Shown one piece after another: positions 3,311 through 62,757 of a stretch of DNA of 64,000 bases. The notes under the pieces are model-generated. The model had not been told where the DNA came from. It ran no database searches and was given only the letters and a program-made list of their open reading frames with translations. Within the stretch, counting starts at the first letter, position 1. Every line of letters starts with the position of its first letter. Source of the stretch: a bacterium (GTDB lineage: Bacteria > UBA8248); the NCBI GenBank assembly GCA_965221165.1, contig CBDCRP010000003.1, forward strand, positions 32,001 to 96,000, written 5' to 3'. A program made the translations under genes and the position numbers.

Positions 3311-4349
3311 ATGAAATTCTCGATTTTTTACGTGATTTGTCCCGAGGGAGACGAATCAGAAGCCGACGCCTACCAGAAGGTAATGGAGCAATGCCAGGCG
3401 GCGGATGAACTCGGTTATCACTGCGCCTGGTTCGCGGAGCATCATTTCTCAAAGGTAGGTATCTGCCCGGATCCCTTGCTGTGGTGTGCAGCGCTGGCGC
3501 AGAAGACCCAAAACATCCGCCTGGGCACGGCGATCTCCATCATGCCCTTCCACAATCCGGTGCGTCTGGCCGAGCAGGCGGCGGTGGTCGATCTGCTTAG
3601 CGGCGGACGGCTGGAACTGGGCGTGGGCCGGGGTTCTCAGCCCAAGGAGTTCAAGGCGTTCGGCATGAAACCCTCTGAGAGCAGAAAGCGCCTCGTAGAA
3701 GGCATGGAGATCGTCTCGAGGCTCCTGGAAGGCGAAGAAGTGACCTTCGAGGGCGAGTATTACCAGTGCAAGGACGTGCAGATTTCCCCCCGACCCATCC
3801 AAAAGCCGAGGCCGCCCATCTGGCTCGCCGGAACGAGTCCCGAGACCTACACCTACGCGGGCGAGAACGGGTTCAAGATCATGGCCTCGGCGGGCTTCAA
3901 GGGTCCCCAGGTCTACCGCGAGAAGATGAAGCTCTACGAGGTAGGCCGTGGCGGCGGCCGGGGGAGATACCTCCGACATCGACTACACCATGACGCATCG
4001 CTTCTACGTCTGTGAGGACAACGAGCAGGCCGATTATCTGGAAAATTTTGAAAAAGGGCTTTCCTCCTACCTCGAATACCGCGCCAGGGTGAACGAGGTG
4101 GAGTTCACGGACGAGGAGGGCAGGCACCTGCAGCGCAACTGGAGCTACCAACTCGACGCGCGCGAGTTTTTAAAAGGCGGCGGCGTCATCGGCTCCGCGA
4201 AAGAGAATATTCAGGAACTCTATCGCCTGAGGGATGATTTCGGGCTGAACCACGTGATTCTCGGCGTTTACGGCGACGGGATGAAACACGAGGAGTCTCT
4301 CAAACTTCTGGAGAGATTCGCCAAAGAGGTCGCGCCCGCGATGGCCTGA
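3311..4349 (+). CDS. LLM-class (luciferase-like) flavin-dependent oxidoreductase, with a one-base frameshift near 3942
   Basis: WFAEHHF, PVRLAEQAAVVDLLSGGRLELGVGRG; C-terminus (LERFAKEVAPA) continues in ORF 3948..4349; removing one base in GAGGTAGGCC rejoins the two parts. Confidence 0.85.
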
Positions 4350-4837: not shown

Positions 4838-5085
4838 GCCAACACAGACGTAACAGGGGGTATGATGCGAGTGGGGAGCGTTCTGCCTTCCTGCATCATC
4901 TCTTCAAATCGATCTTCTCGATCCAGTAATACTGCGAAGAGCGTGCTTAGGCCTGAGGGCGTTACGGAGACGAGTTCGGCCGTCGAATCCTTGACGCCGC
5001 GCATGCTGCCCAATTGCTGATAGATGCGAATGTGAAATTCCTCAGGCGGGAACTTCGCGCCAATCCGTTGTCCCGACTTTCAGCT

Positions 5086-5920
5086 TTACGCCTGCGCGAT
5101 GGGCGTATCCTCCCGGTTGCCCCACTCCTTCCAGGAACTCATGTAGTTTCTGACTTTGGGGTAATCCAGAAGTCTCAGGGCGAAATAACCGTGCGCCGCA
5201 CGGTAGCCCGTCTGTCAGTAGGCCGTCACTTCTTTTTCGGGCGTGATCCCGATGGCCTCGAACTGCGCACGAAGCTCGTCCGCAGGCTTCATCTCGCCCT
5301 CGGGCGTCAGGTGCTGGAGCCACTCCTGCCAGACGGCGCCGGGGATGATTCCGCTCCGCTTGGCGCGCATGCTCCGCCCCTCCCATTCCTCTATCGAGCG
5401 GGTGTCGAGCAGCATGTGGTTATCATCCTCGATGGCCGCCATCACGTCCTCGCGCGTGGCGAGGCGATGCGGCTCGAACGCCATTTCGAAAGAAGCGGCC
5501 CGGGGCGCTTCGGCGTCGCGCGTCGTCTCGAAGCCCGCCCGCTCCCATGCGCCGTAGCCGCCGTCGAGCACGTGGACGTCCTTATGGCCGAAAAGCTCCA
5601 GCATCCAGAAGCCGCGCACGCTCGTGTTGCCGACGAAGTCGTCGTAGAAGACGATGGTGTTCTCGAACGACACCCCCCGGTTTCCCAGCAGAAACGCCCA
5701 CATGCTGAAGAAATTCCTCAAGCGGGGCCTCGTCCGAATCGTCGCTGTTCACGCCGTAGACGTCGAAGTGGCGCGCGCCGGGGATGTGGCCCATCGTGTA
5801 GCGCTCGCCGGGGCGCGTGTCGATGATTCTTAAATTCTGGTCGTCCATGCGCTCTTTGAGTTCTTCGGCCGACCAGAGCAGATCGGGATTCGCATAACCT
5901 TTTGGACTGTCGCTCGACAT
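5086..5920 (-). CDS. Tandem-domain rhodanese/sulfurtransferase; probable selenoprotein (TGA 5215-5217 at the catalytic Cys); one frameshift near 5720
   Basis: IIDTRP..Y..GHIPGA, VLDGG, LLDTRS.EEW, GIIPGA; reading through the TGA gives [45 protein letters not shown] (TAA 5086-5088), which includes the C-terminal rhodanese signature. Confidence 0.85.
5176..5214 (-). promoter_or_regulatory. Bacterial SECIS-like hairpin immediately 3' of the in-frame UGA
   Basis: Perfect 7-bp stem ACCGUGC/GCACGGU with loop GGC starting 18 nt after UGA; lower pairing GGGC/GCCC and CAG/CUG. Confidence 0.75.
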
Positions 5921-5935
5921 GGTGTTCTCCTCCGT

Positions 5936-6683
5936 CTAATCCGTCCAGAAACCGCCGTTCACGTCCACGGCTTCTCCGTTGATGTGGGCGGCCTCCTCGC
6001 TCGTTAGGAACAAGACGGTGTGCCACACGTCCTCGGGCGTCGTGAGCCTGCCCATCGGATGGGCGTTCGCGGCGTTCACCAGCATCTCGGGCGGAGACTG
6101 GAAGTGAAGGCCCGTATCGGCCGGGCCCGGCTGTATGGTGTTGATCGTTACGCCCGTCTTGGCGAGTTCGCGCGCCAGGTTGAACGTCATGGCGAGCAGG
6201 CCCGCCTTGGCGGCGGCGTAGGTGAGATTCGGGCCGATGCCCCCCATTTTACCCGCGATGGAGGCGAAACTGATGATGCGCCCCGTGCCAGAGGCCTTGA
6301 GCGCCTCGATGGTCTCCTGGATACAAAAATAAGGCGCCAGCAGGTTCACGCCGAGCACCACCTCCCAGTCCTCTTCTTCGAGTTCGAGGGGAGGGCGAAT
6401 CGGCATGTAGCCGGCCACGTTGGCCAGCACGTCGCAGCCGCCCAGCCACTCGAGAGCCGTGCGCATGGTGGTGCGAATGGCGTCCACGTCGGCCAGATCG
6501 CAGGGGAGCTTGAAGAGTTGATCGGATGGGCCGTCGATGGCGTCGAAGGCCTCGCCTTCCCTGTCGGTGGCGAAAACCTTGGCGCCGGCCTCCAGGTATC
6601 CTTGCAGGATGCGGCTTCCCATGGCGCCCGCAGCACCCGTGAGGATGACCTTTCGGCCCTGGAAAGTCAAAATGAATGGACAT
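5936..6683 (-). CDS. Short-chain dehydrogenase/reductase; true start probably ATG 6683 with a one-base frameshift near 6664
   Basis: TGAAGAMG, YAAAK, VNGG; GGAG SD precedes ATG-TCC-ATT-CAT-TTT-GAC, giving MSIHFDFQGRKVILTG if one base is removed. Confidence 0.85.
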
Positions 6684-6865: not shown

Positions 6866-7025
6866 AGGCTCATCGAATGCAAGGAAGGCGACATCGCGTT
6901 CTGTCGAATCCGGGGGATTGCGATGTGATCGATGTAGTATACCTATCCAATAATCAAGCAAAGGATAAGAACATAAAAGCGCCCTGCGGCATGCGCTTCG
7001 ATGCCGCAAACGAGTGGAGGTTGTG

Positions 7026-9311
7026 ATGGCTGAACTCTCATACGTCGGAAAAAGCGTGCCTCGCGTCGATGGACCGGAAAAGGTGACGGGCCGGGCCATG
7101 TACACCCTGGACCTCCAGTTGCCCAAAATGCTTCACGGGAAGCTGCTGGGAAGTCCCCTGCCGCACGCGCGAATCAAGAACATCGACACCAGCCGCGCCG
7201 AGAGGCTACCCGGCGTCAAACTCGTGATGACGTCCAAGGACATCCCCGAGGAAGTGGAATGGGGCGTCGTACCCGTTTGCTACGATCAGCGTCCCCTCGC
7301 CTCGGACAAGGTGCGACACGTGGGCGACTCGGTGGCCGCCGTTGTGGCGACGTCTGAAGACATCGCGAAAGAGGCGCTCGACTTGATCGACGTCGACTAC
7401 GAGGATCTTCCCGCCGTCTTCGATCCGCACGAGGCGATGCAAGAGGGCGCCCCCATCCTCCATGACAGATACCCGAACAACATCGCCTTCACCAAGCACA
7501 TGGAATTCGGCGACGTGGACCGCATGTTCGACGAAGCCCACCACGTGAGCGAGCTGGCCACCACCTCCTCGCGCCAGATGCACGGGTCATTCGAGATGCA
7601 CGTCTCCATCGCCGAGTGGTCGCAAAAGGGCGACGTGACGGTCTACAACTCCTCGCAGTGCCCGAGCCTTTCGAGCCAGTATTTCTCCAAACTCCTCAAG
7701 ATTCCAGAGGCCCAGATTCGCGTGATCACGAACTACGTGGGCGGGGGGTTCGGCGGAAAGGCGACGAGTAAGTTCAACATCGATTTCCTCTCCATCATCG
7801 CGGCGAAAAAGCTGGGTCTTCCCGTGAAATTCTACTATGACCGCGAAGAGGAGTTCCTTCTCGGCACCCACCGGACGAAGCAGTTCCACGTCTGGCGCAT
7901 CGCCACGGACAAGGACGGCATGCTCCTGGCGCGCGACACCCGGATGGTGGTGGAAAACGGCGGCTATTCCGATTACGGCCCGGCGGTCGGCGGCATCACC
8001 GCGCACATGGGCGGGAGCATCTACAACTACAAGGCCTATCGCCACCACGCCGACGTCGTCTGCACGAACGTGCCGCCCGGCGGCGCGATGCGCGGCATAG
8101 GCAACGGCGGCTATTCCTTTGGTTCGGAACTCGCGATGGAGAAACACGCCGAGGAAATCGGCATGGACCCGGCGGAGTTTCGCATCAAGAACTTCGTGAG
8201 GAAGGGCGACACCACCATCATCGGGGCCAAGATCACGAGTTGCGGTGTTTCCGAGTGCGTACAGGAAGCGGTCAAGCGCGTGCCCTGGCGTCAGGAACAA
8301 CCGAGCAGCAACGGGAAAAAGCGCGGCTTCGGGCTGGCCGCGGCGGTCCATTTCACCGGCGCGCGCGCAATGGGACCGGAGACGGCGGGCGCGTTCATCA
8401 AGATGAACAAGGACGGCACCGTGCAGTTGCTCTCGGGCACCATCGAGATGGGCAACGGCTCGGACACCACGCTCGCGCAGATTTGCGCCGAAGCGTTGGG
8501 TGTGCGCGTGGAGGACGTGCGGATCATCAACGGGGATACCGCGGTGAACCCCTACGGATGGGGCGTGCGGGGAAGCCGGACGACGACCATCGACGGCGAG
8601 GCTACGCGCCTGGCGTCGGTCCAGGCGAAGAACCTGCTCTTCAAGGGCGCTGCGGAACTGCTCGAGTGCGACCCGAACGACCTGGACGCTCGTGAGGGCA
8701 AGATTTTCGTCACCAGTTCTCCCGAGAGGCAGGTGACCCACAGCGAAGCCTACATGAAAATATACGAGAAAGAGGGTAGCGAGGCCGTCTACACGGCGTC
8801 TTCGTACGACTCGCCGAGCGAGACGCCCGACCCCGTAACGGGCTATGGAAACTGGTCTGCGGCCTATGCCTACGGCGCCAAGGTGGCGGAGGTGGAAGTG
8901 GACACCGAAACAGGCGCGTTCGAGGTCTTGCGGGTCATCAGCACGAACGACGTGGGAACCATCGTGAACCCAGCCGGCGCGCAGGGCCAACTGGACGGCG
9001 GCGTGCTGATGGGCGTGGGCTACGCCATGATGGAGGATTTCGAGGTCGAAGACGGCCAGCCCGTGAACGCGAACTGGCTCGACTACAAGCTGCCGACGAC
9101 GCAGGATTTGCCCGAACTCGAAGCGGTGCTCATCGAGACGGAAAATCCCTCGGGGCCTTATGGGGCGAAAGGGCTGGGCGAGATGGCGCAGTTGGGAACG
9201 TCGGCGGCGATAGGGAACGCGATCTATGACGCCGTGGGCGTGCGGATCACGTCGCTGCCGATAACGCCCGAAAAAGTGCTGGCCGCATTGAACGAGAAAA
9301 ACGGCGACTAA
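7026..9311 (+). CDS. Xanthine dehydrogenase family molybdopterin-binding large subunit
   Basis: VGKSVPRVDG.EKVTG, VGGGFGGK, AMRGIG, EMGNGS, GSRTT, GAKGLGE motifs; SD GGAGG at 7016-7020. Confidence 0.92.
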   Translation: MAELSYVGKSVPRVDGPEKVTGRAMYTLDLQLPKMLHGKLLGSPLPHARIKNIDTSRAERLPGVKLVMTSKDIPEEVEWGVVPVCYDQRPLASDKVRHVGDSVAAVVATSEDIAKEALDLIDVDYEDLPAVFDPHEAMQEGAPILHDRYPNNIAFTKHMEFGDVDRMFDEAHHVSELATTSSRQMHGSFEMHVSIAEWSQKGDVTVYNSSQCPSLSSQYFSKLLKIPEAQIRVITNYVGGGFGGKATSKFNIDFLSIIAAKKLGLPVKFYYDREEEFLLGTHRTKQFHVWRIATDKDGMLLARDTRMVVENGGYSDYGPAVGGITAHMGGSIYNYKAYRHHADVVCTNVPPGGAMRGIGNGGYSFGSELAMEKHAEEIGMDPAEFRIKNFVRKGDTTIIGAKITSCGVSECVQEAVKRVPWRQEQPSSNGKKRGFGLAAAVHFTGARAMGPETAGAFIKMNKDGTVQLLSGTIEMGNGSDTTLAQICAEALGVRVEDVRIINGDTAVNPYGWGVRGSRTTTIDGEATRLASVQAKNLLFKGAAELLECDPNDLDAREGKIFVTSSPERQVTHSEAYMKIYEKEGSEAVYTASSYDSPSETPDPVTGYGNWSAAYAYGAKVAEVEVDTETGAFEVLRVISTNDVGTIVNPAGAQGQLDGGVLMGVGYAMMEDFEVEDGQPVNANWLDYKLPTTQDLPELEAVLIETENPSGPYGAKGLGEMAQLGTSAAIGNAIYDAVGVRITSLPITPEKVLAALNEKNGD

Positions 9312-9329
9312 CGAGGAGAGGGGATAACA

Positions 9330-10196
9330 ATGGCTTTTCGGCATCTATCCGCGAACAGCGCGGAGGAAACGCTCGCCGCCATGAAGGAGCACGGCGAGGA
9401 CGGGAAAGTGTTCGCCGGCGGCGTGGCCCTCTCGATTCTCATGAAATCGCGGGTGTACGAACCCGAGGTTTTGATAGACATCGCGGGCGCGGGGGACCTT
9501 GATTTCATCGAAGGAACCGAAAACGGAGGCGTCCGTATCGGGGCGAAGACGGTGCACCGCAAAATCGAACTCTCCCCACTCGTTCAGGAACGCTTCCCGC
9601 TGCTTGCGGAGATATTTCACAACGTGGCGACGATTCGCATCCGAAACCAGGGGACGGTGGGCGGCAACCTGTGCTTTGCGGAACCGGCATCGGATCCGCC
9701 GGGCGCTTTTTTGGCCCTTGAGGCCCGCATGAACACCAGGAAGGCGGACGGATCGGAGCGCGTGATTCCCGCGACGGAGTTCTGGACGGGATATTACGAG
9801 TGCGCCCTGGATGAGGATGAGTTGTTGTGCTCGATCGAGGTCGACCCGCTGCCCGATGGCTTCCGGACGGCCTGCACGCGCTTCACCACGCGCTCGAAAG
9901 AGGATAAGCCCTGCGTATCCGTCTCCACCGCGGTGCTCACCGAAGAAGACGGCAAAACGGCCAAAGAGGTGCGAATCGGCCTGGGCGGCGTGGAGGCCGT
10001 GTTCAGACGCCTCAGGGCGGCGGAAGAAGGCCTGCGAGGCAAGGAACTCACCCAGGAGAACATCGACGCCGTGCTCTCAGACGCGCTCGATGACCTGGAG
10101 CCTCTGACCGATATCCGCGCGAGCGGCGACTACAGAAGGCAGGTGACGCCCGTCTTGATCAGGCGAACCATTCTGAAGGCGTTGGGCGCATCCTGA
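9330..10196 (+). CDS. Xanthine dehydrogenase family FAD-binding medium subunit (CoxM/CutM-like)
   Basis: AGGVAL, IRNQGTVGGN, DIRASGDYR. Confidence 0.92.
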   Translation: MAFRHLSANSAEETLAAMKEHGEDGKVFAGGVALSILMKSRVYEPEVLIDIAGAGDLDFIEGTENGGVRIGAKTVHRKIELSPLVQERFPLLAEIFHNVATIRIRNQGTVGGNLCFAEPASDPPGAFLALEARMNTRKADGSERVIPATEFWTGYYECALDEDELLCSIEVDPLPDGFRTACTRFTTRSKEDKPCVSVSTAVLTEEDGKTAKEVRIGLGGVEAVFRRLRAAEEGLRGKELTQENIDAVLSDALDDLEPLTDIRASGDYRRQVTPVLIRRTILKALGAS

Positions 10197-51938: not shown

Positions 51939-51952
51939 TTTATCCATGACAA

Positions 51953-61881: not shown

Positions 61882-62757
61882 ATGGGTGAGAAACTTGGAT
61901 TCATCGGTCTGGGTAAGATGGGAACTCCTTTGACCCGGAATCTCATGGCTGAGGGCCATGAGGTATGTGGTTTCGACGTCGACGAGATGCGCATGGAACA
62001 ACTCAGAGAAGCCGGCGGAACTCCTTGCGTGAACGCAAGGGAGGTGGCCGAGCGATCAGACGTGGTTTTCACAATGCTACTCAAGCCCGAGCACATCGAA
62101 ATGAATACCATCGGGCCGGAGGGAATCGCCTCCGCGGGGAAGGAAGGTCTCATTCTCATCGAGATGAGCACGATGAACCCTACGTGGTCCGCAGGCTTGG
62201 CGAAGAAACTGGAGGCGAGAGGCGTGGAGATGGTCGATGCCCCCGTTTCGGGAACGGTGCCGCACGTAGAATCGAGGACGCTGGCTTACATGGTGGGCGG
62301 GAAAAAGGAGATTTTCGAGCATATCAAGCCCATCATCGAACCCCTGGCGAAAAGCGTCCTCCATACCGGACCCAACGGCACGGGCTGCTCCATGAAGCTG
62401 GTGACCAACCTGATAACGAACGCCGGCGTCGCAGTGCTGGCCGAAGGTTTGCTCCTGGGCGAGCGCTCAGGACTGTCTCACGATACGATTATGGATTGCC
62501 TGCGCTCGGGAGCGGTAGCGGGTGCTCTTCTGGAGATCAAAGGGGAGAAGATCCTCACGCGCGATTTCACGCCCCATGGTTCCATTGGAATATACGTGAA
62601 AGATCTCGGCCTTTGCGTTGACCTCGCGAAAGAAAAAGGATTTGATGCGTTTATGACGCAAGCGGGGCTCGAGATGTTCAAGCGTGCGCAAGACGCGGGC
62701 TGGACGGAGGACGATTGCGCGCGCGTGGTGGAGGTGTATGAGGGGAAAGACCAATAG
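61882..62757 (+). CDS. NAD(P)-dependent 3-hydroxyisobutyrate dehydrogenase family protein
   Basis: GFIGLGKMG, EMST, DAPVSG, KLVTN, KDL. Confidence 0.9.
   Translation: MGEKLGFIGLGKMGTPLTRNLMAEGHEVCGFDVDEMRMEQLREAGGTPCVNAREVAERSDVVFTMLLKPEHIEMNTIGPEGIASAGKEGLILIEMSTMNPTWSAGLAKKLEARGVEMVDAPVSGTVPHVESRTLAYMVGGKKEIFEHIKPIIEPLAKSVLHTGPNGTGCSMKLVTNLITNAGVAVLAEGLLLGERSGLSHDTIMDCLRSGAVAGALLEIKGEKILTRDFTPHGSIGIYVKDLGLCVDLAKEKGFDAFMTQAGLEMFKRAQDAGWTEDDCARVVEVYEGKDQ

Follow-up and report, generated by a model that had tools for sequence, protein, structure and literature searches.

A tandem rhodanese gene of a UBA8248 bacterium with a UGA codon, predicted to encode selenocysteine, at the catalytic position

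Introduction

A selenoprotein family of rhodanese-related sulfurtransferases, COG2897, was predicted by Zhang, Fomenko and Gladyshev in 2005 from three sequences of the Sargasso Sea metagenome (PMC1088965). In the passages that concern it, the family appears as 'Sulfurtransferase COG2897' in the GOS table (PMC2398784) and, in a review of 2022, under predicted selenoprotein families (PMC9312934); a review of 2026 (PMC13188914) distinguishes five forms of rhodanese with selenocysteine (Sec) and traces one of them, 'form 4, rhodanese-related sulfurtransferase, UxxG', to the paper of 2005. Sec-rhodaneses are listed there as predicted, and the passages of these reviews report no biochemical characterisation of them. 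The subject of the present analysis is a gene of this kind, at positions 5086-5920 on the minus strand of a 64,000-nucleotide stretch of contig CBDCRP010000003.1 (the whole of which we call the window) from a bacterium of GTDB UBA8248. The family to which we liken it is no discovery of this analysis, a COG2897 selenoprotein of rhodanese type having been on record from 2005 onwards. In the corresponding part of the BSepDB paper (PMC13326102), three metagenome-assembled genomes (MAGs) named Nitrospinota, Nitrospinaceae or Nitrospinae, which are GTDB UBA8248, are among the top ten for selenoprotein genes, with 48-54 each.

The window gene codes for two rhodanese domains, and an in-frame UGA stands at the first codon of the second domain's active-site loop. 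The resulting motif, U-Q-T-G, fits UxxG and lies within the Pfam Rhodanese domain. As judged from sequence, this is a genuine selenoprotein gene, of a kind already known from computational prediction, and we hold with high confidence that its predicted product is a cytoplasmic two-domain rhodanese of the RhdA/SseA type (COG2897) in which the catalytic Cys of the C-terminal domain is replaced by Sec.

Results

In the assembled sequence one extra base divides the gene between two frames. The ATG-initiated frame (start codon 5920-5918, 6 nt downstream of a GGAGGAG ribosome-binding site at 5933-5927) turns to nonsense and stops at 5582; the second, open from 5721, holds the remaining rhodanese sequence and ends at the TGA at 5217-5215. 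Read with that TGA as Sec (U), the second frame extends a further 42 codons to a TAA at 5088-5086, which on this read-through translation is the true stop, and these codons complete both the active-site loop, U-Q-T-G-Y-R, and the C-terminal signature. The Pfam Rhodanese domain PF00581 is found in both halves (E 1.7e-21 in P0001, 1.4e-10 in P0002), the N-terminal match covering P0002 residues 17-69 and carrying on into P0001. The N-terminal domain, with approximate boundaries 5560-5872 set from PF00581 and from alignment to the RhdA structure 1e0c, is non-catalytic: it has Asp where the catalytic C-terminal domain (5119-5454; P0001 residues 90-201) has Sec.

An intact orthologue (L026; 277 amino acids, a single U at residue 235) served as query for comparison with known rhodaneses, so that joined broken pieces were avoided; intact orthologues as a group are of 277-279 amino acids, with Sec at residue 235. 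Among solved structures, A. vinelandii RhdA (1e0c) and the Thermus rhodanese 1uar match best, both at E 1.3e-43. Alignment extends over nearly the full length of 1e0c, 1uar, 1urh and bovine rhodanese, and the segment beyond the UGA aligns to 1e0c and 1uar up to the C-terminus. Counted along the alignment, U falls on Cys230 of 1e0c, which we take to be the catalytic residue; this is the first residue of the RhdA loop C-Q-T-H-H-R, to which U-Q-T-G-Y-R aligns without a gap. Six-residue loops are of the sulfurtransferase type, seven-residue loops of the Cdc25 type. A sequence-only reading of this stretch had proposed a tandem-domain rhodanese with TGA at the position of the catalytic Cys, and a frame running 42 codons past it to a TAA to complete the active loop and the C-terminal signature; domain search, structure-based alignment and read-through translation bear this out. 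On these comparisons the protein is a tandem rhodanese of RhdA/SseA architecture and the equivalog of no curated NCBIfam family, because its scores lie under the cut-offs: 141.5 bits against 250 for the best match, SseA (NF008557), 39.2 against 115 for rhodanese_LYCAU (NF041203) and 16 against 805 for TsoB (NF045694).

Ten nucleotides past the UGA begins a hairpin of the selenocysteine insertion sequence (SECIS) type, ACCGUGC / GGC / GCACGGU at 5204-5188, with a perfect 7-bp stem and a loop that starts at the 18th nucleotide past the UGA. The same reading had placed a perfect 7-bp hairpin with a G-initiated loop 18 nt downstream: stem and loop stand, and the figure of 18 nt fits the start of the loop, the stem itself starting at 10 nt. 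Hairpins positioned in this way are infrequent in the window. Under a loose rule (spacer of 9-11 nt, stem of at least 7 bp with at most two G-U pairs, G-initiated loop of 3-5 nt), 8 of the 1,874 TGA triplets on both strands are followed by one, the rhodanese TGA included, or about 0.4%; the exact form, with a 10-nt spacer, a 7-bp stem free of G-U pairs and a 3-nt loop, follows the rhodanese TGA alone among the 1,874. Two other TGAs with loose-rule hairpins, at 61931-61933 and 51947-51949 (both on the plus strand), were looked at as candidates; their translations look non-coding or out-of-frame, and we took them as background.

Orthologues were sought among 40 relatives, of which 22 belong to the same genus. 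The full gene is present in 21 of these 22, at 84-98% identity and with exactly one TGA in each; in the remaining one the contig ends within the match, ahead of the site. TGA is present as well in a second copy in the genome that holds the window (G000) and in a genome of the sister genus (G023, 72% identity), and there is no stop in the next genus (G024, 65%) or in any more distant match. From named MAGs, all 24 complete loci have the TGA, a 25th locus being truncated; of the titles of these 25 records, six name Nitrospinota and one Nitrospinaceae, and the others read 'bacterium'. The Logan contigs of public sequencing runs, which represent related strains rather than the source reads, show no difference at 5215-5217 among the rows listed, which supports the TGA indirectly; no run contained more than 0.46 of the sampled words, and its contigs may derive from other strains. 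The hairpin is kept in 46 of 47 Sec-type sequences, with one mismatch in a few. Relatives retain both the TGA and the hairpin, the absence of which had been named as grounds for giving up the Sec interpretation, and the hairpin is retained even at synonymous sites.

The pattern of codon usage along the gene was examined in the 31 unique coding sequences of the 47 collected. In the DNA alignment a stretch of 30 nt, which opens with the TAC preceding the TGA and closes with GGT, is almost invariant, and flanking third positions vary freely. Synonymous-codon entropy has its lowest values of the gene in the 10-codon windows that start at codons 233-234 (0.096, against a mean of 0.70), and at nine of the twelve codons 233-244 all 31 sequences agree: synonymous variation is suppressed exactly over the UGA and the hairpin. 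Just beyond, at 10 of the 18 codons 245-262, a single amino acid is specified by two to five different codons; such constancy of the protein with varied codons after the hairpin is, in an alignment of this kind, the signature of translation past the UGA.

Genes for Sec synthesis and insertion were sought in the genome holding the window, and selA (564 bits), selB (384), selD (330) and selC, the gene for tRNA-Sec (75.9), on which the proposal of a selenoprotein depended, are all present above curated cut-offs. selB adjoins selA on the window's own contig; selD and tRNA-Sec are on another. The selD gene (G000:C2:975065-976027; L011) itself has one in-frame TGA, in the motif G-G-U-G-S-K, and so codes for a Sec-type selenophosphate synthetase. 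In view of the 8.47% contamination of the bin, and of the location of selD and tRNA-Sec off the window contig, we also examined five genomes of the genus that consist of a single contig; all five have selB, tRNA-Sec and a selD with an in-frame TGA. UGA is otherwise a normal stop, closing 33 of the 70 stop-to-stop frames of at least 250 codons in the window, where it is the commonest stop codon; the code is not reassigned.

A second tandem rhodanese, 282 amino acids long and 32-35% identical, is encoded outside the window at G000:C3:1059118-1059747 on the minus strand (L046). Its UGA opens the loop U-R-L-S-H-R, at the catalytic position as in the window gene; a 9-bp stem with a GUC loop begins 10 nt further on, and most genomes of the genus contain a TGA-bearing match to it. 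In selD, too, a 7-bp stem can be made out by eye 10 nt past the UGA; two of its pairs are G-U and its loop is GGA, but the minimum free energy (MFE) fold is a different one. Read in this way, the second Sec-rhodanese and selD have the same SECIS layout as the window gene.

More distant homologues have Cys at the codon in question and close relatives TGA. All 13 Cys-type loci have TGC or TGT at the aligned codon and no hairpin there. The best 120 database matches comprise 94 full-length proteins with Cys, 25 of 234 amino acids that end just before the UGA, and one partial sequence; C-Q-T-G-Y-R-S-A-H is found in 57 of the 94. The public records of orthologues are thus cut short, as had been foreseen for standard annotation: they are 234-residue proteins entered as 'sulfurtransferase' or 'rhodanese-like domain-containing protein', several of them from Nitrospinota MAGs, and none of the accessions named in the review passages is among their listed accessions.

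Downstream of the loop the Sec clade reads R-A-A-H-G, as against R-S-A-H-A in most Cys forms; the codons for Ala241 and Gly244 of the Sec clade correspond to Ser and to Ala or Thr in Cys-type loci. Read from the sequences, the codon change from Ser to Ala and that from Ala to Gly each put a Watson-Crick pair where the stem would have a mismatch. A quick maximum-likelihood tree was built from 83 rows, namely the query and 82 of the first 86 matches, four outside 230-320 amino acids having been dropped. All 26 Sec rows are on one side of a branch with a Shimodaira-Hasegawa-like approximate likelihood ratio (SH-aLRT) support of 100, and one change of state suffices to explain them. On this tree the Sec clade has a single origin within the Cys family; that the change ran from Cys to Sec we infer from the wide spread of the Cys forms.

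The extra base that splits the window copy lies within 5720-5723, the exact base being ambiguous within these 4 nt, and was located by comparison with relatives. An indel near 5720 had been suspected from the sequence, and it is real in the assembly: the base is absent from 24 of 24 related sequences, as also from G005 and G007 in a 20-kb comparison. All Logan contig depth at the site is one letter short (15.2 of 15.2 in X1, 10.1 of 10.1 in X4). We considered programmed +1 frameshifting and rejected it, the extra base being unique to this assembly among 25 sequences and the site having no slippery or stop-codon context of the prfB type.

Elsewhere in the window, a gene for a luciferase-like monooxygenase (3311-4015 plus 3948-4349, plus strand) is split by a 1-nt insertion at about 3942 and is intact in G005 and G007. 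Two single-base insertions 1.8 kb apart suggest the pattern of assembly consensus errors, and we lean, by a modest margin of belief, towards the extra base in the rhodanese gene being such an error rather than a real lesion.

Positions 1-40000 of the window have a colinear, inverted counterpart of at least 40 kb at G000:C2:36782-78072, at 83-92% identity. This C2 block is as diverged as other species of the genus are, and it includes the second copy of the Sec-rhodanese, intact and 94% identical (G000:C2:70754-71386; L045).

Directly upstream of the rhodanese gene, on the same strand, is a short-chain dehydrogenase gene (5936-6670; Pfam adh_short_C2, E 1.9e-45), whose stop lies 15 nt ahead of the rhodanese ATG; the two are therefore probably co-transcribed. 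The junction is kept in relatives of the same genus and, with a longer spacer, in the Cys-type locus of G024; the GGAGGAG within it is largely kept among aligned relatives, one base being changed in a few rows. Conserved as it is, the dehydrogenase gives no clear clue to the substrate of the rhodanese. Logan contigs of an RNA run (X17) cover 5086-5217 and 5753-6079, a coverage that does not show transcription. Divergent from the pair, at 7014-10196 on the plus strand, are the genes of a molybdenum hydroxylase, one for the large subunit, of the aldehyde oxidase/xanthine dehydrogenase family, and one for its FAD subunit.

Discussion

We propose that the in-gene hairpin 10 nt past the UGA would recruit SelB with Sec-tRNA(Sec), that the UGA would be read as Sec, and that the 42 further codons would then supply the rest of the active-site loop and the C-terminal signature. 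In the enzyme, a selenolate would replace the thiolate in the double-displacement cycle; sulfane sulfur would be taken up as an enzyme Se-S intermediate and passed to an acceptor, and the lower pKa and better leaving group of selenium would speed both half-reactions. Selenium incorporation, substrate and chemistry are here what we propose, on the basis of the architecture, UGA site, machinery and conservation seen in the sequences. The original suggestion of a Sec-dependent transferase gains from the TGA, the hairpin, the Sec machinery and the conservation taken together, all of which point to it.

Several observations weigh against this proposal. The copy as assembled is frameshifted and, if the frameshift is real, the full protein is impossible. 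The bin, contaminated as it is, may be a mixture of two relatives, or it may contain an old duplication of large extent. The local 76-nt region has an unremarkable MFE (z -1.37) in this G+C-rich DNA, and Cys-type loci fold with similar or lower energies, though without a positioned hairpin; Rfam, with E allowed up to 10, has no model that matches within 5050-5350. With so little variation among orthologues, the stem offers no compensatory covariation, and where it does vary the changes are uncompensated: a U-to-C at stem position 5 in L066 and L068 (from the genomes of L041 and L044), and a U-to-C that loses the last pair in L045 and L069 (the latter from the genome of L050). The GGC loop lacks the G-U dinucleotide of the E. 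coli fdhF element. As to the origin of the Sec form, the Sec label in the tree was set by the 234-residue length, and the root is a midpoint root.

The strongest competitor, which we consider a serious though lesser possibility, accepts the family as true selenoproteins and takes the window copy to be a real pseudogene, inactivated by a genuine 1-nt insertion at 5720-5723. The base is in the assembly and lies outside any long homopolymer; the intact copy on contig C2 might let such a lesion be tolerated; and the public runs, none with more than 0.46 of the sampled words, do not give the source reads. The rest of the gene is nevertheless undamaged, its protein being 98% identical to the G005 orthologue, and the second insertion, 1.8 kb away at about 3942, looks like the work of a consensus-error process. 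The contig depth in X1 and X4 is entirely without the extra base, though these may be other strains, and the C2 copy lies in a block of 83-92% identity and so may belong to a different organism. Two further explanations concern the UGA itself. That it is a plain stop, leaving a 234-residue rhodanese without catalytic loop and 42 untranslated codons, is how public pipelines call the gene, as the 25 short proteins among the best 120 matches testify, and TGA is the commonest stop in the window. We nonetheless think it very improbable: the 42 downstream codons are open and conserved as protein, with synonymous change, in 31 sequences; they complete the active loop, and their alignment with solved rhodaneses continues as far as the C-terminus; the truncated product would be without the catalytic residue; and Sec machinery is present in the genome. 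Slighter still is the chance that, in place of Sec-tRNA, a near-cognate tRNA for Trp or Cys reads the UGA, or that the code is reassigned. Read-through of that sort would likewise keep the downstream frame under selection, but TGA ends 33 of the 70 long frames, the hairpin at a fixed 10 nt is common to selD and the second Sec-rhodanese, synonymous suppression falls exactly over the hairpin, and Trp at the position of the catalytic Cys would kill the enzyme.

A different question is what a Sec-rhodanese would do in these bacteria. It might be a dedicated selenium carrier more than a sulfurtransferase, its selenolate binding a second selenium as an Se-Se perselenide and handing it to the Sec-type SelD in support of a large selenoproteome. 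According to one review (PMC9369223), a stable perselenide of ordinary rhodanese arises in vitro, and the enzyme has been suggested as the selenium donor in selenophosphate synthesis. The genus has at least two Sec-rhodanese paralogues, and a Sec-SelD in every closed genome checked. The rhodanese shows no genomic linkage to selD or to selA/selB, which lie elsewhere in the genome, and we regard the carrier role as unlikely.

If our proposal of a catalytic Sec is right, the locus is a clean case of an enzyme switching from Cys to Sec, in which two nearby amino acid replacements would each add a pair to the SECIS stem. The practical value is in annotation, and current knowledge is not overturned: because the public records end before the catalytic residue, the gene is mis-annotated as truncated, and metabolic reconstructions and proteomic databases for these bacteria would miss an active enzyme.

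Among known systems, form 4 of the Sec-rhodaneses (COG2897) is like the window gene in its SseA/RhdA tandem architecture, in having Sec in the catalytic loop as U-x-x-G, and in being predicted by computation only. The likeness is one of motif and description, and the two may belong to one clade; the passages that contain the form 4 tables give no organism, whereas the present clade comes from MAGs, some of them titled Nitrospinota. The families rhodanese_LYCAU (NF041203) and TsoB (NF045694) likewise have a rhodanese homology domain with Sec, but the first is a single-domain CxU type and the second a DsbD fusion with UxxxxU, and neither is a tandem rhodanese with Sec in place of the catalytic Cys.

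The SECIS of E. coli fdhF is an in-gene hairpin just 3' of the UGA; some 11 nt separate the UGA from the minimal stem, and the apical loop contains a G. Set against that element, the hairpin here has a perfect 7-bp stem without the bulged U and a GGC triloop without G-U. With E. coli SseA (NF008557; 1urh) the alignment is full-length, over profile positions 6-279 of 281, at a score below the equivalog cut-off; mercaptopyruvate enzymes have the loop C-G-S-G-V-T, from which that of the window protein differs. RhdA (1e0c), like 1uar, has the same two-domain fold, residues 11-274 aligning with 6-269 of 1e0c, and the same inactive N-terminal domain. Its six-residue loop, C-Q-T-H-H-R, begins C-Q-T, where here we find U-Q-T-G-Y-R; RhdA and the Thermus thermophilus enzyme 1uar use Cys at the first position of the loop, and here that residue is encoded by UGA.

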